A DNA stretch of 64,000 bases from Eledone cirrhosa (Eukaryota). A program made the translations under genes and the position numbers. The stretch covers positions 88,164,001 through 88,228,000 of the forward strand of contig OZ024744.1 in the NCBI GenBank assembly GCA_964016885.1, in the 5' to 3' direction. Of the stretch, positions 2,030 to 61,962 are shown in pieces. Positions within the stretch are counted from its first letter, which is position 1, and the number at the start of each line of letters is the position of its first letter. The notes under the pieces were generated by a model. That model made no database searches, was not told the DNA's origin, and worked only from the letters and a program-made list of their open reading frames with translations.

Positions 2030-2337
2030 TCACTCTCTCTCTCTCTCTCTCTTTCCACACACACACATATATATATATATACTTATATATGTATATATAT
2101 ATATAATATATTTAGAAACACACAGATACATGCGGACACACACATATATACATGAATGCATCCGCACCCAACTGTGAGTTAAGGGTGCCAACTTCACCGA
2201 TGTTGCTCAATGAATGACTGGGACAGACCAATTCAGTTGAACTAGACTGAACCAGTATCAGAGTTAAAAATACATTCGCCTTTTGGGATTCTTTCTCACG
2301 TCGTGTAGACGCGTTCTTAAGACTAGTAAAATGAGGT

Positions 2338-2429
2338 ATCCTCTTGATAAGTCGGCAGACCTCGCAAGGACTCTATATCTTTATGATATATTGTTTTTGT
2401 TTATGCCACGAAACTACGTAGTCGAGGAA
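2338..2429 (+). ncRNA. Type I hammerhead ribozyme, U3-A8 core variant
   Basis: TCCTC-TTGATAA-GTCGGCA...TGCCAC-GAAAC-TACGTA-GTC-GAGGA. Stem I TCCTC/GAGGA, stem II GT(C)GGCA/TGCCAC, palindromic stem III ACTACGTAGT. Predicted cut after 2423. Confidence 0.8.
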
Positions 2430-2932
2430 TTTAGGAGCAGTTTAGGTATGATACATTTTATTACTAATTATATCTAAATGTTTCTTCTCTCTTCATAATG
2501 TATTTTTAACTCTGATACTGGTTCAGTCTAGTTCAACTGAATTGGTCTGTCCCAGTCATTCATTGAGCAACATCGGTGAAGTTGGCACCCTTAACTCACA
2601 GTTGGGTGCGGATGCATTCATGTATATATGTGTGTGTCCGCATGTATCTGTGTGTTTCTAAATATATTGTTAATAACTCCCTCTGGTCGAGCAATCTTTG
2701 AAGTGTGGGGACAGCTGGAAAGCTTCCATTACTCATACTTCTCGCCTTCTTCACCACCTCTTCTACGACCTCGATATAGATACCCCCTCCGCCTCCGTGG
2801 TATTTTCTTCGGGGTTATAAGAGGCTTAGCTCTGTTTCTCGACCGTTATATCGCGTGATTATCTCCTCCTCCGCCTTTTGGGATTCTTTCTCACGTCGTG
2901 TAGACGCGTTCTTGAGACTAGTAAAATGAGGT

Positions 2933-3024
2933 ATTCTCTTGATAAGTCGGCAGACCTCGCAAGGACTCTATATCTTTATGATATATTGTTTTTGTTTATG
3001 CCACGAAACTACGTAGTCGAGGAA
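2933..3024 (+). ncRNA. Type I hammerhead ribozyme, U3-A8 core variant (second repeat copy)
   Basis: TTCTC-TTGATAA-GTCGGCA...TGCCAC-GAAAC-TACGTA-GTC-GAGGA. Predicted cut after 3018. Confidence 0.8.
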
Positions 3025-3092
3025 TTTAGGAGCAGTTTAGGTATGATACATTTTATTACTAATTATATCTAAATGTTTCTTCTCTCTTCATA

Positions 3093-3138
<46 letters not shown>

Positions 3139-3228: not shown

Positions 3229-3272
<44 letters not shown>

Positions 3273-3312
3273 GAATATAAATATTAATAAAATAGATGTT
3301 CTTTTGATCAAT

Positions 3313-3371
3313 TACATTTTATTATACATATTTCGGATGTACAACAGTACGTCCTCCTCAGACAAAATATA
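3313..3371 (-). ncRNA. Type I hammerhead ribozyme in PLE pseudo-LTR
   Basis: Minus strand: TATATTTTGT-CTGAGGA-GGACGTAC-TGTT-GTACATCC-GAAA-TATGTA-TA-ATAAAATGTA. Confidence 0.8.
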
Positions 3372-4768
3372 ATGATACATGACATACCCTGAGATGTTAA
3401 ATGGTTAAGATTTAATCAAGGTAGTGATTAACCTAAGAGAAAATTTAACATTTATACCCTAATAATGAGAAAATGCGAAAACGTAATAAATTCAATAGAG
3501 AATATGTGAGTAAGAAAAACGTTGCTTAATGTACCAGTTATCGAGATTTTAATATGTATGATACTACAATTTATATAGGAAAGCATTTCATGAATTATAA
3601 CAGTCAGTGAGAGAAGGGGAGTAATGTATGCAGAAGGAGATTTTTTTCCGAAAGTTAAACGGATAAGTTTGAAAATATTTAATTTATGTTATCTTAGGGT
3701 GAAGAATCAATAGTTTAGGTGTTTTTTTTAAATTGGTGATTATTTATATATTAGTTTTGTAAATTTTACAAGTGTGTTAACATTTCTAAGTTTCTGAATT
3801 ATTTGATGATAAGATTTAAAGGGTTTAGCTGGCCACTATTAAGGAAAGTTTACACTGTTGAATATTTTCCTAAATGTAATCTTTAATGATGTCAGTTATT
3901 GTCAATGTATTAGGTATGTAAAGCTTTTGAAGTACTTATTGTTATAAAAATGTAAATAACGGTTATGTATATAGATATATATTAATTAATTAATGAGCCA
4001 GTATATTTTAGGTAAATGATAATGAAAATAAAATTAAAATAAAATAATAGATTGAGGCATGTTAAAACTAAATATATACCCATATATAACCACGTGTACA
4101 TGTATTAATTATTCCTATCTCAAAGTAAAAACAATAAAAAAATTTAGAAGTTAACTGAAAATTATGTATATAAAGATACTTGGGAGTTATATATGGATAT
4201 ATCTTATATTATGTATTAGTGATACAGTATACTTTAGGTAAATGATAACGATTAGAATTTTATATAATAAAGTTCTACGTGTTAAAGTTAAATACATATA
4301 TATATATATAAGAAAAACAATAATAAATGTATGGATAATTCATAGTTCGAAATAATGTTTATAATAGTTTGTAATTTGGATATTTGCTCCATATTTGAAT
4401 CATGGATATAAGAATGCGGTAGGTATATTTAAAAACATAGAAAATATAATTACATGCACATTATAAATAAGAGATCAGAAACGCATGAAAAATTCACAGT
4501 TATAAATAAGTTCAGTAAAGATGTAAGGGTTGGATACAAAACTCAGATTTAAAACTTAAGTAGGAAGATAAGGATAGAGAAATAAAGAAATAACGGTATG
4601 GATCAAAGTTAACAGAATAATGTTATGTGTATCAATCTTCCGGCATGTTATTGAACAAGTGTCTTTCATTCGAGCGTTATTTCTTCTACAGATAGTTATA
4701 AGATAGTGCAATATTAAAAGCCACTAAAGTTTTCCCCTGTTGATTTTATACGTCTGACAACCAAATTT

Positions 4769-5500
4769 TTAATGGTTTAATGTTTCTCTCTCTTTTTTTT
4801 CTCTCGTTTTGTGGGAGGCTAAGAATGTGGATGTAGCTTTGTGGAGGCAACTATAGAATAATTCACTTTTTTTGTTAATTAGGGTCTCGTAGTTATTAAT
4901 AATCAACAGGATCTCCATTGTACAGAGTGCGCAGTTATTTGATACACTAGAGTTGTGGTAAACTCCACAGTTCCGAAGTTTTGTCCAAAGAATGGAGTAT
5001 TTTAAATTCTTCTCTTTTAATGACCATATGAGCTGTGATAAAGACGTGGATGATTTCCTCTTTGAGTTCGATAATGAGCATTTATGGTTCGCAAATCTGG
5101 CTTTAAAAGTGGAAGAAGTGGATCCTATGTAGTTGTAAGTATTGTGATCTGTTTTTACGGTGCATTTATAAACCAAATTACTATCTAAACAATTATTTTG
5201 CAAAGGGCAATCAGTTTTATTTCTACAATTACATTTAGGTTTAGTATCATTTATGTTAACTCTATTATTAATATCATTATGCTGATTTTGTTTTAGGATT
5301 TTAGTGTTTAATTTGGCGATGTTTTGGGCCATGTTACTGGTTGTAGAATATGAGAATTTAATGGTATGTCTATTAAAAATGGTATGTCTATTACAAATGT
5401 TGAGTAGGGAAAGAAGTGTCAAGAGCTTTAAAGAATAATTTTGCGATTGGTGTTTTGATTGCGACAGAAGCAGGGGGGGGGGGCAAACCATATGACTGTT
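4769..5500 (-). pseudogene. PLE linker plus GIY-YIG endonuclease, frameshifted, RT domain absent
   Basis: IFNRHTIKFSYS...CNCRNKTDCPLQNNCLDSNLVYKC...YIGSTSSTFKARFANH...LSQLIWSLK...CALCTME...INKKSELFYSCLH. Upstream VIWFAPP and IKTPIAKLFFKALDTSFP motifs are in other frames (shift at the G-run 5473-5483 and at a short duplication near 5360-5395). Confidence 0.85.
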
Positions 5501-5793
5501 TAGTTCTAGTTCTTATCCTCGATTTATTTGGCGTATGGGTGTTTGAATTATAATTAGTAGAGTTTCCTTTATATATGTTATTATTTTTATTAAGATTAAT
5601 AGTTGGATTATTATTATATACATATTCTATGTTATTCGTATATCGTTTTTCTTACTCACACATTCTCTATTGAATTTATTACGTTTTCGCATTTTCTCAT
5701 TATTATGGTATAAATGTTAAATTTTCTCTTAGGTTAATCACTACTTTGATTAAATCTTAACCATTTAACATCTCAGGGTATGTCATGTATCAT

Positions 5794-5852
5794 TATATGT
5801 TGTCTGGTGAGGACGTACTATTGTACATCCGAAATATGTATAATAAAATGTA
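5794..5852 (+). ncRNA. Hammerhead motif, probably inactivated core (CTGGTGA)
   Basis: Inverted copy of 3313-3371 with A6 changed to G. Confidence 0.6.
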
Positions 5853-5988
5853 ATTGATCAAAAGAACATCGATTTTATTAATATTTATATTCTAATATTA
5901 ATAACTCCGGAAAATTATTTTACCGTAGAGTGCTTCCAATCTACTGTAAAACTCATTCTTTGACATACTCATAGAATATTGTTTAACT

Positions 5989-6031
<43 letters not shown>

Positions 6032-6072
6032 CAAGATATTAATAATTGGAGATATTCACGTAATCAAAATAT

Positions 6073-6140
6073 ATATTTTATTATATATATTTCGGAGGTA
6101 CTGTGCTGTTTTTTCAGTACGTCCTCATCAGATAAAATAC
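6073..6140 (-). ncRNA. Type I hammerhead ribozyme (canonical core)
   Basis: Reverse complement of 6257-6324. Confidence 0.8.
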
Positions 6141-6256
6141 ATAAATTGATGTATGACATACCCCACCTGTGCTGATGGTTCAATTCCAGTCTTGCAGACT
6201 GCCAAGGCTGGAATTGAACCATCAGCACAGTTGAGGTATGTCATACATCAATTTAT

Positions 6257-6324
6257 GTATTTTATCTGATGAGGACGTACTGAAAAAACAGCACAGTACC
6301 TCCGAAATATATATAATAAAATAT
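6257..6324 (+). ncRNA. Type I hammerhead ribozyme (canonical core)
   Basis: GTATTTTAT-CTGATGA-GGA(C)GTACTG...CAGTAC(C)TCC-GAAA-TATATA-TA-ATAAAATAT. Confidence 0.85.
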
Positions 6325-6466
6325 ATATTTTGATTACGTGAATATCTCAATTTATTAATATTTTGAATAATATTAATAACTTCTGAAAACCTCTTTGTTG
6401 AGTGCTTTTAATCTATTGTAAAACTATATTCATTGAGTAATCAATGAACCTAGTTTAACATTTGGG

Positions 6467-9022: not shown

Positions 9023-9062
9023 ATATATATATATAAGTGTATATATTTGTATATACATATAT

Positions 9063-9740
9063 ATATAAATGGAAAGAATGAAACGAAATTTCATTTCTCA
9101 CTCTTAGTACGGCTGTTACCTAAATATAAGTATGTATACGTACATACATATATGTATACAGACGTACAGTAGTATGTATATATATACATACATGCACACA
9201 TATATATATATGTACGTATGGATTCACCGAACATTCATTATAATGCTCGGTTTGTTTCTCATCAAACATCCCGGATTAAGCGTACAGTGTTTGGCAACAA
9301 TCGTTGCCCTCTTGTTCAACACTGACAAAGGAAATTTCGTTTCATTTTTTCCATTTATCGTTTTCGGTGCGCCCGGCCGATTAACTGACTCGATATGCAA
9401 ATTAGGCTGCTCAGCTGTTAATATCCATAAGGAAAATATATACTTTCAGACGGTCAATAATCTGGCAGGAAGGTATAGGTTGCTGACGATAGCTAATAAG
9501 CTTGAAACTAGTACAACGTCCCTTTGTCAGTGTTGAACAAAAGGGCAACGATCGTTGCTAAACACTGTACGGCTTAATCCAGGATGTTTGTTTACAAACA
9601 CACCGAGCACTATAATAAATGTTCGGTGAATCCATACTTACATATATATATATATACATGTGTGTGCATGTATGTGTATATATATACATACTACTGTACG
9701 TGTGTATACATGTATATATGTACGTATACATACTTATACA
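9063..9740. mobile_element. Fold-back, circularly permuted non-coding element (family G, unit of about 430 nt)
   Basis: 9125-9331 is inverted relative to 9521-9737, and 9063-9092 is inverted relative to 9331-9358. A second copy lies at 46988-47255. Confidence 0.8.
9479..9517 (+). ncRNA. Minimal type I hammerhead ribozyme
   Basis: GTTG-CTGACGA-TAGCT-AATA-AGCTT-GAAAC-TA-GTA-CAAC, with palindromic ACTAGT. Predicted cut after 9513. Confidence 0.85.
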
Positions 9741-10368: not shown

Positions 10369-10459
10369 GTATATATAAAGTATAACAATATCGGTTTCAA
10401 CACACGTTTTCAGATAAAGAATCTTGCTAAACAAATTCAGAAACGAAATATATATATAT

Positions 10460-11625
10460 ATGTCAGACGCATTGACTTGTTTTCTATCTGCTTGCATAAA
10501 TTCCATAAAACATTTCACAAAGTATACAGCTAATATTCAATTCTTTATCAATTTAGAATCTTTTTTCTCAAAGGCATATATATATACACTTCTTTTAAAA
10601 ATATACCCATCTTTCTACCTTATTTCAAAGGTTATTATACATTCTATAATACTTGTTTACTCATTACTCTTACTCTATATCACCTTGTAAAAATCCTTCG
10701 TAAACATATACATTTTTTTTGACGCTAGATTATTCATCCTCAATTCATTATTCTTTTCTCCCTATCATCTAACTCATTATTCTCAATACATATTAACATT
10801 TTCTTTTTCTTCGCACATATTATCAAATTCTTCAATATACAAACCTTAACTTTACATTATTTTTTTCTCTTCGTTAATTTTCAAATTCTATAATACTTGT
10901 TTACTCTTTCTACATCACCCATATTTCTCACTTCCTTTTCCTCTCTTCTAATATCTAACCCCTAATCTGTACCTTTTCTCACTCTTGCCTAACATAGAAT
11001 CAATTATTACATAATACAACACATCTTACTCTATATCACCTTGTAAAAATCCTTCGTAAACATATACATTTTTTTTACGTCAGATTATTCATCCTCAATT
11101 CATTATTCTTTTCTCCCTATCATCTAACTCATTATTCTCAATACATATTAACTCTTTCTTTCTTCGCACATATTATCGAACCCCTCAATATACAAAGCTT
11201 AACTTTACATTATTTTTCTCTTCGTTAATTTTCAAATTCTTTTAATTTATACATTATCTTCCAACGGTTTTCAACTCTATGTAAAACAATATATCTTTCT
11301 CAGTTATAAAAGCTATCTCTCCTCCTATCTCCTCCTTCCTCATTATACTCCTCCCTCTCCACCTTCACTCTCATCTCCTTCTTTTTTCATCCTTTCCACC
11401 CCACCCCCCTCTAAATAAAATATTTTTCCCAATATCACACATCAATCTAAAACTACTTCTCATATGTTGATTTAAAACTGAACTATCCACAAGTGTTTTT
11501 TAACCTTCATATCATGTCCTCCTGTTTTATCTGATGAAAACACAAATATTATTGCATGAAGATATTTGTTTTTGAAATGCGCATAATAAAATACATGGAA
11601 CTCTTTTAACCATCTTTTGTTCTTA
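10460..11625 (+). mobile_element. AT-rich element with an internal duplication of about 220 bp (10669-10889 vs 11026-11240) and a 3' hammerhead
   Basis: The direct repeat is visible, a hammerhead lies at 11523-11593, and TA tracts flank the element. Confidence 0.6.
11523..11593 (+). ncRNA. Type I hammerhead ribozyme
   Basis: TGTTTTAT-CTGATGA-AAA(C)ACAAATAT...ATATTTGT-TTTT-GAAA-TGCGCA-TA-ATAAAATA, with palindromic ATGCGCAT. Confidence 0.85.
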
Positions 11626-11744
11626 TATATTATATGCATATATATATATGCATATATCTATGTACAAATATATATGAATTGAAAAAAAAAAAAAAAACAC
11701 ACACACACATAAAAAAAACAAAAAAACACACACTCACACATAGA

Positions 11745-12183
11745 ACAAACAACCAACCAACAATAAATAAATAAACAAATAGATAAATGAACACAAACAC
11801 ACACAGACACCCGGATGTGGCGCATGCGCAAACTGAGCACACAACACACACACAGAAACAAAATGGCGTAGGATAGAAGAAAGGAAAGGCACAGAAACAA
11901 AGGAAGGAATCCCCAGTCACTGAAGAGGTCACAGAGTGTGTGACGAAAGGACTATGACTATATATAAACAACTATCTGGTTGTGGAACCAACCAACCAAC
12001 CAGAAATTTATAAGTTTGTAGATTTGTAAATTTATAAATTTATAAATATATAATAAATTGATGTGAAAGCAACTGGTGCGTGTGTTGCTTATTGGCAACA
12101 TGACCCTCCCAAAGTATAACAATATCTGTTTCAACACACGATTTCAGATAAAGAATCTTGCTAAACAAATTCAGAAACGAAAT
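11745..12183 (+). mobile_element. Non-coding hammerhead element (family F)
   Basis: Nearly identical inverted copy at 61488-61915. Tail fragments at 10377-10448 and 22341-22512, and a diverged relative at 39848-40710. Confidence 0.8.
11915..11959 (+). ncRNA. Type I hammerhead ribozyme
   Basis: AGTCA-CTGAAGA-G-GTCACA-GAGTG-TGTGAC-GAAAG-GA-CTA-TGACT. Confidence 0.85.
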
Positions 12184-12574: not shown

Positions 12575-15500
12575 TCAGGATTTGGGCACCATGGCCCATT
12601 CGAGAAGAGAATTACTGTTTGCGGAGACATATCCGGGTGTGGGTGGTTTGTCCGGGATTACTTGGAGGAATTTGTCCAAAGACTTCTTGAATTTTGTGTG
12701 GTCAGTTTCTGTTTTGACGTGTCCTGGTGTGATGTTGAAGAGAGCAGGGCCGATTGAGGTGAAATAATTGTGCCGTATTGTTGTTATGAGTTGCGATTTA
12801 GATTTTTGAATGGGACGGATAGCACGGGGCCCAAGCCTTGGGTGTATCTTGAAGGCGATGCCAACATCATTTGGGCAGTGATGATGGAACATTTTCCACA
12901 TCATGCAGATAATATAACGCTCACGGCGACGTTGGAGTGAGTAAAGTTTCAGGTTTTCCAATCGACCCCAGTAGTCAAGGTCTGACATGCCATCTATCTT
13001 TTTCGTGATTGCCCTTTGAGGAGCTTCAAGTTTCATGATACTTTGTTTCGTGTGGGGAGACCACAGTGGACAACAGTATTCAAGGTGTGGTCGGGCGAAA
13101 GTAGAGAAGAGAAGGATAATGGTGCGGGAATCTCTCGACTGGAAGGTTCTGAGGATCCAGGAACACATTCTGCGGGCCATGTCAACTTTGCTGCTTATAT
13201 GCGTGGTCCAGCTTATGTTGCTGTCCACGGTTACTCCCAAGTCTCTGATGTTGTTAGATGCCACGAGAGTTTCCCCGGAGGGAAGGGAGTACGGGAGTTT
13301 CAGAGCATCCTCTTTTCCAAAGTGGATCAGTTCGAATTTGTCTTCGTTCAGTAACATGTTGTTCTTTTCTGCCCATTGGGTAACAGCCAGTAGGTCTGAC
13401 TGAAGGCTTATCCGGTCATCCACGCCATTGATGACCTTTTGGAGCTTGGAATCATCAGCGAAAATTTTAATGTTGCTGTGTTTGATGATGTCAGTGATGT
13501 CATTAATATAGATGATGAAGAGAAGTGGGCCCAACACAGTGCCTTGTGGGACTCCACTACTGACTTTGGCTGGGCCTGATTTGACTCCCTCAACTACAAC
13601 ATGTTGGGTTCTGTTTGACAGGAAGCTCTTGATCCACTGCAGCAGCTTTCCAGTGACACCAATATTGGACAGCTTTCTCAGTAGAATGTTATGATCAACC
13701 CTGTCAAAGGCCTTGCTGAAATCAAGGTAGATAACATCAGTGTTGGAACCCTCTCCCAAGGCTCTCAAAATGTCATCAAAGTGATGCAGTAGTTGCGTCA
13801 GGCAATCCCTTCCATTACGGAATCCATGCTGGTTGGAGTTCAGCATATTGTTACTCTCAAGGAAGTGGGTCATTCGCGATCTCACCACTCGCTCAAATAC
13901 CTTAATGATATGAGAGGTGAGTGAGATTGGACGGTAATTCACGGCAAGGGATTTGTTTCCCTTTTTGAAAACTGGGACAACAGACTGGGATAGAAGGTTT
14001 TCTGGCACATATCCAGCATCCAGTGAGTTCCGCCACAGATTGGCAAGAGGAGAAGCAAGTTGGTGTTGACACGCCTTCAAGACACAAGCAGGGAACCTAT
14101 CGGGACCTACTGCTGAATTATGCTTGATTTCCTTTATTGCCGCCAAGACATCAGGGGCGCCAAACGTTATGTCCGATAAGGTGTAATGGGGAGTAACATC
14201 GCCGATACAGCCCAGATCGGCCATATCAGGATTGCTGAAAACAGAGCAGTATTGTTTCTGCAGTATCTCACCCATGGTTTTAGCATTGTCTTGAAGAGTG
14301 CCATTTTCATCAATTAGAGGGCCAACAGTAGAGCCAGTGATTTTGTGTTTTTTTGCAAATGAAAAGAACACTTTGGGATTGAGTTTGATCTTCTCAATGG
14401 CCCAGGCCTCTTCAGCTCTTCTCTGATTGTTGATGAGGGACATTATGTTGTTTTGGAGGTTATGTTTTTTAATCTCTAGTGATGAAATGGCAGTCAAGTT
14501 GATGTGTTGCTGCTGACAGTATTTCAGCTTGTTGATTTTTTTGTTCGTTCTCTTAATTTTTCTGATGAGTGTTTTTCTATTTCTAGGGATTCTGCTCTTA
14601 GATTTGTTTATAGTTCTTAATGGGGTGTGTTTAGCACATATGTTTGTAACAGTGTCCACAAATGTCTGCCAGGACTTTTTGATGTTAGTGGGTGTATGAG
14701 TGTGCGTGAAGGACCAGTCGACATGTGCAAGATCATGACTGATCGCTTCCCAGTTTGCATTGTGGAAATCCATAGCGTCAAACGGATGGACAGGAGAAAT
14801 GACATTGGGTTTGTATATTGGACGGTGGAAACTCAGATCACAGAGAACCATGTCATGATCAGAGAGTAGAGTTTTCTCCACTGCAATATTGTGGATATTG
14901 TCAGTGTGATTGCTGAAAATTAAGTCTAGGACGTTTTTGTGGCACCTCGTTGGTTCGAGCACTAGTTGGGATAGGAAGAAATCATCCATGAAGTCAAGAA
15001 GCGATTCCACAGCTTCCCTGTCAGAGGTTGAGGCAGAAGAACCTGGTGGCAGGGTGTTTGTGGACCAGTCAACTCCGGGGAGGTTGAAGTCCCCCATCAT
15101 TAAGATGTTGTCAGGGTGACACTCTTGGATGAAACACTTTATGCTGTTGAGGCATTCCTTGAAGCATGGTACAGGCGTTTGGGGTGGCCTATAGAGCCCA
15201 ACTACTAATAGGTTGTTGGTTTGACTGAATACAGTGACTGCCTCACAGTATCCATTAGTGAATATGTTCATAGCCTCTGTTGAGAAAGAATTATGGACAT
15301 AAATGGCAGTTCCGCCCTTTCTTCTGCCAGCGCGATCAGCACGGATGGCTTTGAAATTTTTCACTTTCACCTCGGCTTCCAAGTGGAGGTTACTGAGATG
15401 GGTTTCAGTGAGGACGAAGAAAGGGATGTGGTTTGGATGGACATCAATCCAGTCCTCCAGGAATTTGATCTTCCATTTTTGAGTATTGGTGGAAGGGCTG

Positions 15501-15595
15501 ATGCCTTGGGCGTTAAGCAAAAATGTAGAGGCGAGAGTGGATGGTTTTAATTGTTTTGGTGTGTTGTTAATTTGTTTGTTTGTTAATGGCAGCAA
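12575..15595 (-). CDS. LINE ORF2: AP endonuclease plus reverse transcriptase
   Basis: 1006 aa. EN motifs LNAQG, LTETHL, GGTAIYV, YRPP, MGDFN, LDLIF, SDH. RT motifs NYRPISL, QHGFR, YLDFSKAFD, SGVPQGTVLGP, FADD, RDLGV. CR1-type C-terminus LEYCCPLWSP...LYSLQRRRER. The annotated start is TTG and the frame is open from 15712. Confidence 0.95.
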   Translation of the reverse strand: MLPLTNKQINNTPKQLKPSTLASTFLLNAQGISPSTNTQKWKIKFLEDWIDVHPNHIPFFVLTETHLSNLHLEAEVKVKNFKAIRADRAGRRKGGTAIYVHNSFSTEAMNIFTNGYCEAVTVFSQTNNLLVVGLYRPPQTPVPCFKECLNSIKCFIQECHPDNILMMGDFNLPGVDWSTNTLPPGSSASTSDREAVESLLDFMDDFFLSQLVLEPTRCHKNVLDLIFSNHTDNIHNIAVEKTLLSDHDMVLCDLSFHRPIYKPNVISPVHPFDAMDFHNANWEAISHDLAHVDWSFTHTHTPTNIKKSWQTFVDTVTNICAKHTPLRTINKSKSRIPRNRKTLIRKIKRTNKKINKLKYCQQQHINLTAISSLEIKKHNLQNNIMSLINNQRRAEEAWAIEKIKLNPKVFFSFAKKHKITGSTVGPLIDENGTLQDNAKTMGEILQKQYCSVFSNPDMADLGCIGDVTPHYTLSDITFGAPDVLAAIKEIKHNSAVGPDRFPACVLKACQHQLASPLANLWRNSLDAGYVPENLLSQSVVPVFKKGNKSLAVNYRPISLTSHIIKVFERVVRSRMTHFLESNNMLNSNQHGFRNGRDCLTQLLHHFDDILRALGEGSNTDVIYLDFSKAFDRVDHNILLRKLSNIGVTGKLLQWIKSFLSNRTQHVVVEGVKSGPAKVSSGVPQGTVLGPLLFIIYINDITDIIKHSNIKIFADDSKLQKVINGVDDRISLQSDLLAVTQWAEKNNMLLNEDKFELIHFGKEDALKLPYSLPSGETLVASNNIRDLGVTVDSNISWTTHISSKVDMARRMCSWILRTFQSRDSRTIILLFSTFARPHLEYCCPLWSPHTKQSIMKLEAPQRAITKKIDGMSDLDYWGRLENLKLYSLQRRRERYIICMMWKMFHHHCPNDVGIAFKIHPRLGPRAIRPIQKSKSQLITTIRHNYFTSIGPALFNITPGHVKTETDHTKFKKSLDKFLQVIPDKPPTPGYVSANSNSLLEWAMVPKS

Positions 15596-16734
15596 TGGGA
15601 GTTTGTGCAGTGGGGTGATAGTGGAGGGTGGTGCTGGGTGATAGCTCGAATGTTTTTTTCCAGTTCTTTTGCCAGATTCATTATGGCTAAAAAAGAGGAA
15701 GAAGTTTCCTGTTTAGAAGACTGTTGGTGACTGTGGTAGTGGTTATTTTTATGTAGGTTATGGTTTTTGTTTTTGCTTTTATTTTTAATTTTATTTTCAT
15801 TTATCCGACGGGTCCCCGGGAGATGGGTAAAGGGACAATCCCGGTCTAAACACAATCTGTCTCGCAGGGAAAAACGGCAGATTTGTGGATTCCTTGTTTG
15901 AGTTATTGGTGGTTGTGTTGGTGTTAAATTAGAGTATGTATTATGGTGGTGGCTGTTTGTGGGGATAGATCGTTTTGTCCTAGGTAAATGGGTGAATTTG
16001 CAGCCACTATCCGTACATATTCTATAGCGTAGAGAGTAGCGGCAAATGATGGGGTTTCGAGTGGGTGGGTATGTGGGTGTGGGTGTTGTGAGAGGTGTAG
16101 ATGATGGTTTGGGTAGGATTTGACGACCTTTGTGGACTGTGGGAGGGAGAGTTCTTGTTCTGGTATTAGAAGGTAAATTCCTTGACATAGCAGTAGACAA
16201 AAATGTTGTAGTAGTAGTAGTAGTAGTAGGCAGAGATGTTGGCAGTGGTGATGATTGGACTGCTGGGCCAGAGAAAGGATGTGGCGTTTCATGCTGTGAG
16301 ACAGAGGCCACTGGGGGGTCAATAGTTTCATTTAGTAGATCGGCCATTGTTGATGAATCAAGGAGTGGTTCACACTGTTGTTGTCGTTGTTGTTGTTGTT
16401 GTTGCTGTTGTTGTTGCTGTAGCTGTTGTTGTTGTTGTTGCTGTTGCTGTTGTTGTTGTTGTTGTTGCTGCTGCTGGACAGCATTCGAAGAGAAAACACA
16501 CCGTAGTTTATCCAAATGTTTATTGATTAATTTAAAAGCAATTTCGATTTGCTTTAATTTATTTTGAATCTGTTGTTCAGATCGAGTTTTCAAAAATTGA
16601 ACTGTACGTTTAGCAATGTCGTTCAGAGATGAAGCATCTATATTTTCTGTTTGGGAAAGGCAATGCCATGTGTTTATTAGAATGTCGATTTCATTATCAG
16701 ACCAGTTCTGTTTGGATTTTTGCTGGTTAGCCAT
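15583..16734 (-). CDS. LINE ORF1: N-terminal Myb/SANT-like helix region, polyQ, two CCCH-type zinc fingers
   Basis: 383 aa. WSDNEIDILINTW...RSEQQIQNKL, a Q tract, and CRYSLRYRICTDSGCKFTHLP plus CRFSLRDRLCLDRDCPFTHLP. Directly upstream of and overlapping ORF2. Confidence 0.85.
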   Translation of the reverse strand: MANQQKSKQNWSDNEIDILINTWHCLSQTENIDASSLNDIAKRTVQFLKTRSEQQIQNKLKQIEIAFKLINKHLDKLRCVFSSNAVQQQQQQQQQQQQQQQQQQLQQQQQQQQQQQRQQQCEPLLDSSTMADLLNETIDPPVASVSQHETPHPFSGPAVQSSPLPTSLPTTTTTTTTFLSTAMSRNLPSNTRTRTLPPTVHKGRQILPKPSSTPLTTPTPTYPPTRNPIICRYSLRYRICTDSGCKFTHLPRTKRSIPTNSHHHNTYSNLTPTQPPITQTRNPQICRFSLRDRLCLDRDCPFTHLPGTRRINENKIKNKSKNKNHNLHKNNHYHSHQQSSKQETSSSFLAIMNLAKELEKNIRAITQHHPPLSPHCTNSHCCH

Positions 16735-17113
16735 TCTAGTTTTGAGTGTGTGTGTTTTTTAGTTAAGTATTTCAATATATATATATATTTTTTTTTTTTT
16801 AAATTTATTTTTGATTTATTTTTGTTTTTTGTTTTTCTTGTGTGTGAGTGAGAAGCGTATATATATAAATATGAGTATATATATATATATATATGTATAT
16901 TCTGGTTATTTGAAATTAATTAAGTTAATGAAAAGACGAAAGTATATAATAATAATTTGTAGTTAAAGGAAAATGTACTCACAAGTTCGTGTGTGTGTGT
17001 TTTAGTTAAGTATTTCAATATATATATATTTTTTTTTTAAATTTATTTTTGATTTATTTTTGTTTTTTGTTTTTCTTGTGTGTGAGTGAGAAGCGTATAT
17101 ATATAAATATGAG

Positions 17114-19011: not shown

Positions 19012-19610
19012 GCGGTGGATTGGCAGTATCGGTAGAGGGTCAGACGCCATGCTTTGCAGCATTGTGTTACGGCCCTTTATGATCTGAGTTCAAATCCCGT
19101 CGAGGTTAACTTTGCCTTCATCCTTACAGGGTCGATAAAATAAAGTACCAGTAATGCACTGGATAATTGATGGCCTTGTGCCTAAAGTAGAAACAATTTA
19201 TTATTTGCAGTATCGGTAGAGGGTCAGACGCCATGCTTTGCAGCATAGTGTTACGGCCCTTTATGGTCTGAGTTCAAATCCCGCCGAGGTTAACTTTGCC
19301 TTTCATCCTTACGGGGTCGATAAAATAAAGTACCAGCAATGCACTGGGTAATTGCTGGCCTTGTGCCAAAAAGTAGAAACATTTATTTACTTCATTGGCA
19401 GAATCTGTAGAGCGTCGGACAACTTGTTTTGCAACATAAACTTACGGCCCCTTTACATTCTGATTTTAAATCCTGCAGAGATTAGCTTTGCCTTTTATCC
19501 TTACGGTGTTGATAACATAAAGCACCATTAATGCACTGGGGTTGATTTAATCGATTTCCCCCTCCCCTAAAATTGCTAGCCATGTGCCTATAGCAGAAAC
19601 AGTTATTTAC
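19012..19610 (+). mobile_element. Head-to-tail trimer of octopus-type tRNA SINE
   Basis: Units start at about 19012, 19205 and 19395, each with A/B boxes and the GTTAACTTTGCCTTTCATCC core (third unit diverged). Confidence 0.9.
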
Positions 19611-22510: not shown

Positions 22511-22930
<420 letters not shown>

Positions 22931-23480
22931 GTTAATAAGACAGCGGCCTAAATATATATATATCAGAATGAAGTAACAGAGTCAGAAACTCGCGTTAGTC
23001 CCTGTAATTGATGAGCTCAAAGGAAAAAGAATCTTGGGCACTTCAAATATAATATATAGAAGAAAACACACGAGGGAAAGAGTGTGTGCACGTCAGGTTA
23101 CAGGGGTACCACTAGCATATGGAACCTATAAACAAAGAAAGGTGAGGTAGATACATTATAATTAAAAAGATAAATTAAAATGAAACAACCCACCTTTATA
23201 TCACACACATACAAACTCAGAGAGAATGTTTCGCCAGAAATCGGTGTTGGAATTGGATTCACCCAGGTTCATCAGAGTGTGTTAGGTGAATACATTCCAG
23301 ACGTCTCTAAGAGAACTTAAAGTAAGTGACTTGCAACGGAAATGCGTGTACGAGACAGTACACTAGTGGTTTGAATGTGATGAGCCGCTAGAAATAGCAG
23401 TCCAAAATAACTCAAATTAAGGTGCTCGACAAAATATATATATATATATATATATATATGCATAAACACACACACACACA

Positions 23481-26774: not shown

Positions 26775-26929
26775 TTATCCCGGGTTCAATAGGGGGTAAC
26801 CACAGTAAATAAGGTACTCAATACATAACAGTGTATAAATATTTAATATAGAAATGGCTTCTACGGGGCTAGAACTGCTTCCTTCGAAGGAAATTATATA
26901 TATATTTATATATATATATATAATAAAAA

Positions 26930-46985: not shown

Positions 46986-46987
46986 TA

Positions 46988-47147
46988 TAAACGGAAAAAA
47001 TGAAACGAAATTTCATTTCTCACTCTTAGTACGGCTGTTACTTAAATATAAGTATGTATACGTACATACATATATGTATACAGACGTACAGACGTACATA
47101 TATGTATACACACCGAGCATTATAATAAATGTTCGGTGAATCCATAC

Positions 47148-47182
<35 letters not shown>

Positions 47183-47255
47183 CATGTATGTATATATATA
47201 TATACATACTACTGTACGTCTGTATACATATATGTATGTAAGTATACATACTTAT
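46988..47255. mobile_element. Family G fold-back element, shorter copy without the ribozyme
   Basis: Both arms end at the same positions as in 9063-9740. Confidence 0.75.
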
Positions 47256-47412
47256 ATATATATTGTATATAACTTTCTCAGTACTCTGATATGCCCAGTT
47301 CCTGGTTGGGTTGTTATTTCACTGAGGAACTGGAATCATATTTATTTTATTTTATATATATATATATATATAAAATATATATAATATAAAACGAAAAATA
47401 TATATATATTTA

Positions 47413-55884: not shown

Positions 55885-56021
<137 letters not shown>

Positions 56022-56509
56022 AAATTAACTTACTTACTATATGTAATATATATATATATATTACATATAGTAAGTAAGTTAATTTTTTATAATTTTCTTA
56101 ATTTACGTCTTTCATATAATTGTTCGGCATCCCCTTGCATTGAACCACAACGTTACTAAGACAAAACCTATATATTTGCTAGCATAGGTATGCATCTGTA
56201 TATATATGTTGGTAGATATACTAATTCTTTATAATTATCTCCAAATTATTTTGTTGAGCAAAAATATGCCAAAACTGCTACTATAGTTCATAGAAATGGC
56301 TCGGCTACTGTCTTTTTAACACCCCACTCCTCACTAATTAACCTCGATGTCACGTGATTGATTCTTTTGAATTTGCCACCGACCAAGTAGGCAGTGATTT
56401 TTTCAATGTCTTCGAATTTAGTCCACGCTTGCTTTTTTCCATCCACTGAATTATTTTCATATAAGTTCCCTGTGTCCACGCATCGCCAAGTATCTTAGCT
56501 GAGAACAGA

Positions 56510-56590
56510 CTTCCTGATAACGAAACGGCTTCTCCATGCTTTCAATTTGGAAACCATGTTTATTCCCTTTCAGAAACTAATTAGTTGGAG
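56510..56590 (+). ncRNA. Degenerate hammerhead (family H, core CTGATAA)
   Basis: CTTC-CTGATAA-CGAAACGG...CCCTTTCA-GAAAC-TAATTA-GTT-GGAG. Confidence 0.55.
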
Positions 56591-56720
56591 TGAAATTTTA
56601 GTAAGTAAGTTAACTTTTATAATTTTCTTATTTTACATCTTTCATATATATATATATATACATATGCATATATATTAATTCAAAATATTAACAAAAATAG
56701 ACAATTCTTGTGATCAAGTA

Positions 56721-61420: not shown

Positions 61421-61487
<67 letters not shown>

Positions 61488-61491
<4 letters not shown>

Positions 61492-61915
61492 CGTTTCTGA
61501 ATTTGTTTAGCAAGATTCTTTATCTGAAATCGTGTGTTGAAACCGATATTGTTATACTTTGGGAGGGTCATGTTGCCAATAAGAAACACACGCACCAGTT
61601 GCTTTCACTTCAATTTATTATATATTTATAAATTTACAAATCTACAAACTTATAAATTTCTGGTTGGTTGGTTGGTTCCACAACCAGATAGTTGTTTATA
61701 TATAGTCATAGTCCTTTCGTCACACACTCTGTGACCTCTTCAGTGACTGGGGATTCCTTTCTTTGTTTCTGTGCCTTTCCTTTCTTCTATCCTACGCCAT
61801 TTTGTTTCTGTGTGTGTGTTGTGTGCTCAGTTTGCGCATGCGCCACATCCGGGTGTCTGTGTGTGTTTGTGTCCATTTATCTATTTGTTTATTTATTTAT
61901 TGTTGGTTGGTTGTT
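61488..61915 (-). mobile_element. Family F hammerhead element
   Basis: Inverted near-identical copy of 11745-12183. Confidence 0.8.
61704..61748 (-). ncRNA. Type I hammerhead ribozyme
   Basis: Reverse complement of 11915-11959. Confidence 0.85.
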
Positions 61916-61962
61916 TATATATATATACACATATATATATATATACACACATATATATATAT

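Follow-up and report, generated by a model that had tools for sequence, protein, structure and literature searches.

PLEs characteristically insert as inverted, 5'-truncated copies with a one-sided tail, and their targets are microsatellites or (TA)n tracts (PMC8557442). The tail corresponds to the element's own start (PMC3846280; PMC11167929). For a Poseidon PLE, Frangieh et al. documented that reverse transcription starts internally, downstream of the hammerhead, at two sites that bracket the tail (PMC11167929). The Hydra clade of PLEs targets (TA)n, is diagnosed by RWK, DKT, CxCX5C, CxxC and CxH, and is listed for Octopus bimaculoides in the supplement of the same study (PMC8557442). Metazoan non-LTR retrozymes, on the other hand, are units of ~170-400 nt, or 51-972 nt in a recent preprint (Li et al., 2026, bioRxiv 10.64898/2026.07.22.740005), and circular forms of their RNA occur in coral, mussel and axolotl (Cervera and de la Pena, 2020, PMC7229834). 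The enzyme that mobilises animal retrozymes and the role of the hammerhead in the PLE cycle are open questions in the field. PLEs have been proposed as the movers from co-occurrence and pseudo-LTR homology (PMC7229834; bioRxiv 10.64898/2026.07.22.740005), and retrozymes have already been interpreted in print as non-autonomous derivatives of PLEs (bioRxiv 10.64898/2026.07.22.740005).

In this study, we characterized a ribozyme-bearing insertion, hereafter family G, located at 9065-9738 of the window, that is, of the whole 64-kb stretch of Eledone cirrhosa DNA analysed. The best reading of this locus is a real feature of an ordinary class, namely a non-autonomous PLE-type hammerhead element. More precisely, we give a probability of roughly 60% to family G being a non-autonomous, retrozyme-sized PLE derivative of ~430-440 nt that is mobilised in trans, with a Hydra-clade enzyme as the probable mover. 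The unit most likely reads, in this order, tail, short body, hammerhead and pseudo-LTR segment, and its mover is most likely an endonuclease-bearing PLE of the Hydra clade. A short ribozyme unit with PLE-type ends, lying in an insertion-rich region, makes the question of the retrozyme mover testable. Our literature search found no cephalopod ribozyme unit like family G, which the supplements of the retrozyme papers could list; the giant squid paper, in the parts available to us, only counts hammerheads.

The insertion is built of two arms whose 5' ends meet at 9331/9332. The minus arm runs from 9331 to 9065 and the plus arm from 9332 to 9738, so that both 3' ends point outward, facing TA-rich microsatellites. 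Sequence comparison shows that the left arm (9065-9331, minus strand) is 5'-truncated and passes through a short end, the tail and a long end before reaching (TA)n. The tail (9065-9124, minus strand) is a one-sided 3' extension with a hairpin and GAGTG at +21, by which the left arm reaches 57-60 nt beyond the stop point of the right arm. The right arm (9332-9738, plus strand) comprises 27 nt of tail, ~120 nt of body, the hammerhead and a post-cut segment, and finishes at the short end in (TA)n. Its first 27 nt (9332-9358, plus strand) are an internal copy of the 3' part of the tail, differing from each left arm at 1 of 27 columns, and it is this copy that closes the map. The post-cut segment, or pseudo-LTR body (9514-9738, plus strand; 225 nt), contains stem-loops and an internal TA/CA-rich self-complementary block; the predicted fold of 9514-9640 has a z of -2.3. 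The two arms are 88.5% identical over 218 nt (9521-9738 against 9331-9125, E 1.6e-76), and in the comparison for different template variants they carry 5 and 2 private changes in 101 columns. Reading the flanks by eye, we noted a possible 15-nt target-site duplication (left copy 9053-9067, plus strand; right copy from ~9735), which is uncertain because it lies inside a microsatellite.

The first-pass annotation had read from these arms a closed map of about 430 nt with one ribozyme and no ORF, in which the end of the unit leads into its own start, and our analysis bears this out. The motifs it had cited lie at 9331 on the plus strand and 9092 on the minus strand (GAAATTTCGTTTCATT), at 9521 and 9331 (CCTTTGTCAG) and at 9729 and 9134 (CATACTTATA), respectively. 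The closing repeat measures 36 nt, of which 33 are identical (9323-9358 against 9100-9065, E 1.2e-8). The closed map amounts to 440 nt with the post-cut segment of the right arm and to 429 nt with that of the left arm; the unit assembled from the two arms has a GC content of 0.36. The arms are 407 and 267 nt long, each shorter than one unit, and hence closure arises only by combining them. Regarding coding capacity, the longest ATG frames at 9065-9738 reach 49-66 aa, and a Pfam search with the 142-aa stop-to-stop frame at 9108-9536 gave no match. A full-length Hydra-PLE profile built from 25 homologues has no match at this locus, and in the window it scores only at 4769-5600. A candidate decayed Hydra ORF start in the body (KLGCSAVNIH, 9399) was rejected, as it ranked 700th among the 127,924 positions scored with the profile and mismatched invariant residues. 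Thus, no PLE coding remnant was found in the unit.

The hammerhead previously placed at 9479-9517 was confirmed by sequence and predicted fold as type I, and with its distal pairing it spans 9469-9525 on the plus strand. The core CTGACGA occupies 9483-9489 and GAAA 9504-9507, with the predicted cut after 9513. Stem I has 4 bp (9479-9482/9514-9517) and a distal 5-bp extension (9469-9473/9521-9525), stem II has 4 bp (9491-9494/9499-9502) above a U.U base, and helix III is a loopless palindrome. In four stretches folded, the ribozyme-compatible structure lies 1.4-2.4 kcal/mol above the minimum-energy fold. A relaxed type I descriptor found eight motifs in the window, including this one, and none in each of 200 dinucleotide shuffles. 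Rfam did not detect the family G hammerhead at the gathering score, nor among the 84 matches up to E 10, most of them noise from TA hairpins, and its pattern has no match in bacterial and archaeal genomes. Over both strands of the window we counted eleven type I hammerhead candidates, none of them at the Rfam gathering score; the Rfam miRNA matches, below cut-off, were discarded as noise from TA hairpins.

The family G ribozyme resembles Hydra-clade hammerheads. Of the 25 Hydra families listed in the supplement of PMC8557442, 14 likewise have a U.U at the base of stem II, as counted by eye, 11 of these 14 coming from one species. In contrast, the helix III loop has no nucleotides in family G and 1-3 in the Hydra ribozymes listed there, and a short-string search of that supplement gave no match to the family G ribozyme strings. 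Hammerheads with a palindromic type of helix III cut poorly alone and act as dimers (PMC4209133). By analogy, the palindromic helix III of family G would imply the need for a second ribozyme copy, which is absent at 9065-9738. Since this locus carries one ribozyme with a dimer-type helix III, the copy should not release a unit-length RNA or a circle alone, to judge from PMC4209133.

The window contains a second family G insertion, also head-to-head and lacking the ribozyme, at 46987-47256. Its left arm stops at the long end and its right arm at the short end, both as in 9065-9738, and it has a different inner junction, with a short filler (~47092-47108) that resembles nearby sequence. Hence, all four family G arms end at one of two sites, in TA-rich repeats. 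Both loci show two fixed 3' ends ~60 nt apart, a head-to-head inverted 5'-truncated copy and a one-sided tail of 57-60 nt. The last 27 nt of the tail recur at the start of the right arm of 9065-9738, and the join of tail to body is present in only this one of the two. The body segment has no further copy within the 64-kb window.

These long inverted arms, together with a second copy resembling a centre-deleted form, are what a foldback or MITE-like DNA element, an inversion after insertion or an assembly artefact in a repeat-rich region could also leave. However, the ends are unequal by 60 nt, the two loci combine differing junctions with outer ends that are fixed and unequal, and the arms mismatch in 14 of 183 ungapped columns, unlike an assembly duplication. 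The ribozyme is moreover intact, and a PLE-coding neighbour has a like layout. We regard an origin of this kind as very improbable.

The question is then which RNA served as template. It had been suggested that the closed map reflects a circular or tandem RNA, and that the partial-tandem pseudo-LTR structure of PLEs could give the same pattern without a circle. One part of the first suggestion stands: the right arm begins within the tail and continues unbroken over the cut site, which supports a template in which the tail precedes the ribozyme. A circle is unnecessary, as both arms can be copied from a linear RNA bearing the 60-nt tail at each end, or from a partial-tandem transcript. In the published PLE layout an element end leading into its own start is expected, and this feature is therefore no proof of a circle. 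The pseudo-LTR alternative fits better, given the two fixed 3' ends common to both loci, the head-to-head arms, the (TA)n targets, a coding Hydra-type PLE neighbour with the same layout and the published PLE tails that repeat the start of their element (PMC3846280; PMC11167929). The proposed check for tandem arrays came out negative in the window, where none of the 145 TRF arrays has a period near 430.

Because the right arm crosses the cut site, the template was either uncut linear RNA or a ligated circle. In the latter case, tandem donors elsewhere would have supplied cut-to-cut monomers, and a PLE RT would have copied the circles made from them, beginning at two start sites. The unit size, 36% GC, lack of an ORF and type I hammerhead fit non-LTR retrozymes, the intact crossing of the cut site is accounted for, and a circular PLE template has already been proposed (PMC4209133). 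A modelled circle is also 67% paired, with a z of -5.4. Yet this z falls to -2.6 without the TA block, and the circle folds into local hairpins rather than a rod, with 3 pairs between the body and the post-cut segment. The window has neither a tandem array nor a second family G ribozyme, neither arm is longer than one unit, and the one PLE tested used mainly uncut RNA as its substrate (PMC11167929). In addition, the minus arm starts 8 nt past the predicted cut, as had been noticed, at the point equivalent to 9521 of the plus arm, which is where the 3' strand of the distal stem I begins; this stop suits a cleaved end or a stall at the folded stem I, and is more easily explained by linear RNA. 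Altogether, a ligated circular template seems distinctly unlikely to us. The stop at cut+8 may itself be due to chance, since only one of the four family G arms starts near the predicted cut; at three other loci with a ribozyme, the arms begin about 70-200 nt upstream of it.

The join that closes the map could have another origin, in which there is no 440-nt unit at all. The right arm would then derive from a longer PLE, perhaps a coding one, of which 5' truncation left the 3' end, and its cDNA would have been re-primed at the long-end site and gained ~30 nt more of tail before it joined the left arm, mimicking circular permutation. Several facts agree with this: the shared internal sequence stops exactly at the long end, PLE RT starts internally without primer homology (PMC11167929), the filler at the junction of the second locus resembles nearby sequence and points to template jumps, and the tail-to-body join occurs in one copy only. 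Nevertheless, the left arm must finish at the long end in every model, so that its coincidence with the shared sequence weighs little. Two further insertions in the window, at 2105-3098 and 56015-56648, also run through their terminal sequence into a short non-coding body, which suggests that short units are common, with the same ambiguity. We thus consider re-priming on a longer element unlikely.

The preferred reading, a PLE derivative moved in trans, can be laid out as a series of steps. A donor copy or partial tandem would be transcribed into a linear RNA that carries the tail twice, ahead of the body and again behind the pseudo-LTR. A GIY-YIG endonuclease would then nick both strands of a (TA)n tract; this target is the one observed, and nicking of both strands is taken from another PLE (PMC11167929). 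Each nick would prime reverse transcription at one of the two fixed internal sites, the ends of which are observed in both loci. The cDNA begun at the short end may cross the uncut ribozyme and stop in the upstream tail, and that begun at the long end may stop at the ribozyme, because of a cleaved 5' end or the folded stem I; both boundaries are observed and their causes are conjectural. Finally, the cDNA ends would anneal through a 9-nt imperfect match and be repaired into a head-to-head insert. The microhomology itself is observed (9323-9331): 7 of 9 positions agree with the tail sequence preceding the right-arm start, a match found in about 1 in 1000 of 27,966 comparison pairs, and the repair had many pairs to choose from. 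The exact base of the left-arm start may have been set by this match.

Compared with described elements, family G combines the insertion mode of a PLE with the size and ribozyme type of a non-LTR retrozyme. Like Hydra-clade PLEs (Craig et al., 2021, PMC8557442), it has (TA)n targets, at all four ends, a type I hammerhead near the 3' end with the U.U base of stem II, and a head-to-head truncated copy with a one-sided tail. Unlike them, it has no ORF and only a partial tail motif, and its tail of 57-60 nt exceeds the 30-40 nt given in print for PLEs in general. Family G lacks the ORF with RT and GIY-YIG of an autonomous endonuclease-bearing PLE, and it shows the head-to-head copy, the one-sided tail and the predicted type I hammerhead within a pseudo-LTR that mark a PLE-type non-autonomous insertion. 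In Penelope/Poseidon PAc (PMC11167929) and Adineta Pen2a (PMC3846280), as in family G, the 3' ends are fixed at two sites beyond the ribozyme, the tail forms the beginning of the next unit and an inverted pseudo-LTR lies on the 5' side; their microhomology junctions may have a counterpart in the imperfect match of family G. In both of these PLEs, however, an RT-endonuclease ORF lies between the repeats, the tail is ~30 nt and the ribozyme overlaps the ORF start. With metazoan non-LTR retrozymes (PMC7229834; bioRxiv 10.64898/2026.07.22.740005), family G has in common a non-coding unit of a few hundred nucleotides (429-440 nt), a GC content below 50% (0.36) and one type I hammerhead. In contrast to these, it shows in the window a single ribozyme and no head-to-tail array with at least two, and it has head-to-head PLE-type ends and a predicted fold that is not rod-like.

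A different family inserted ~3 kb away provides a control for the PLE-type layout. This head-to-head PLE insertion (3264-5990) carries a hammerhead at 3361 (minus strand), a C-terminal endonuclease fragment (4769-5512, minus strand) and a one-sided 94-nt tail. It is a 5'-truncated PLE with a 1.4-kb AT-rich 3' region and an inverted pseudo-LTR at 5644-5896, and it is followed by a related palindromic insertion with two hammerheads (6027-6465). An exhaustive search with the endonuclease fragment gave 4,679 relatives, the alignment of which conserves CxCX5C, CxxC-E and N..CxH, and RW, DKT and YRDD are found in five long relatives. A word-index search found no match among longer proteins. Pfam recognised one of seven relatives, weakly (GIY-YIG, E 0.0023), and no solved structure matched them by sequence; the assignment of this fragment to the Hydra clade thus rests on its motifs. 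The repeat content, a homologue named from Argonauta and the Hydra family listed for Octopus are all in keeping with a cephalopod host. In the window we found no autonomous partner similar in sequence to family G, nor any sequence similarity between its pseudo-LTR and an autonomous Hydra family.

For a wider comparison, we assembled ten head-to-head loci, nine picked by eye from 40 inverted pairs plus the second family G locus. The selection required one arm ending in a microsatellite and the other bearing a short extension; SINE pairs and pure microsatellite hairpins were excluded, as were loci with an extension that continues past the arm with no repeat close by. In all ten loci so chosen the extensions measure 57-96 nt and end in (TA)n or (CA)n, and they fall into about six sequence groups. 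The head-to-head insertion at 2105-3098 is very young, with arms 99-100% identical; its period is 595 nt and non-coding, its plus arm holds 1.4 units, and no canonical hammerhead core was found in it. That at 56015-56648, related to 22612-22943, is also head-to-head and ends in (TA)n; its body measures 531 nt and its direct terminal repeat 51 nt, and no complete hammerhead was found. A strict twin-priming rule, by which the first cDNA stops at the second primer, was rejected, as it fails for the second family G locus and for 2105-3098. Elsewhere, the stretch 10377-12182 (copy at 61471-61916, minus strand) has an 81-nt end sequence at both 10377 and 12111. Two hammerheads lie between these occurrences, at 11531 and 11920, and a weak profile match at 10579 resembling a Hydra N-terminus was below significance (E 0.28).

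The tails of the selected loci share a short motif. GAGYRC occurs at +24 to +31 in seven of the ten (background 2.4% per 60 nt), and CTC lies upstream of it in six (background 0.8%), counts that are no blind test, because GAGTR was first noticed in these very tails. In three of six published Hydra consensi, as read by eye in the supplement of PMC8557442, GAGCAC sits in a terminal hairpin; the terminus is the 3' end in two of them and the 5' start in the third. The CTC..GAGYRC motif is a candidate RT recognition signal. The family G tail has GAGTG at +21 only (background 4.3% for the range) without the CTC partner, and this partial motif makes the link to the Hydra clade by tail motif weak. In the window, GAGYRC tails were seen at 5896, 6370, 6672, 7305, 47737, 55735 and 61240, and also at 26819 (minus strand) and 49023 (plus strand). 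In unrelated repeat families the motif, usually with CTC upstream, is separated by ~25-30 nt from the short end and by 40-60 nt from the microsatellite that follows.

Taken singly, the copy at 9065-9738 is an ordinary dead or passenger copy. A broader interpretation, which we hold to be possible though doubtful, is that family G is a true retrozyme, forming circles from tandem donors elsewhere and integrated here by a Hydra-clade PLE, with two fixed start sites around a conserved tail hairpin; of the two cDNAs, the first would have stopped at the cut and the second would have read across it. If so, the junctions at this locus would be evidence for the mobilisation of animal retrozymes in trans by PLEs, and CTC..GAGYRC would stand out as an RT recognition signal common to Hydra PLEs of several phyla.

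The window holds other repeats. A dispersed repeat of ~190 nt, which we presume to be a SINE, occurs at 1438-1720 and about 12 other places, with a tandem of 184 nt at 19019-19540. A LINE frame of 1045 aa, free of interruptions and encoding endonuclease and RT domains, extends over 12575-16758 (minus strand), and the 391-aa frame that precedes it shows a weak Myb/SANT-like match and a glutamine run.
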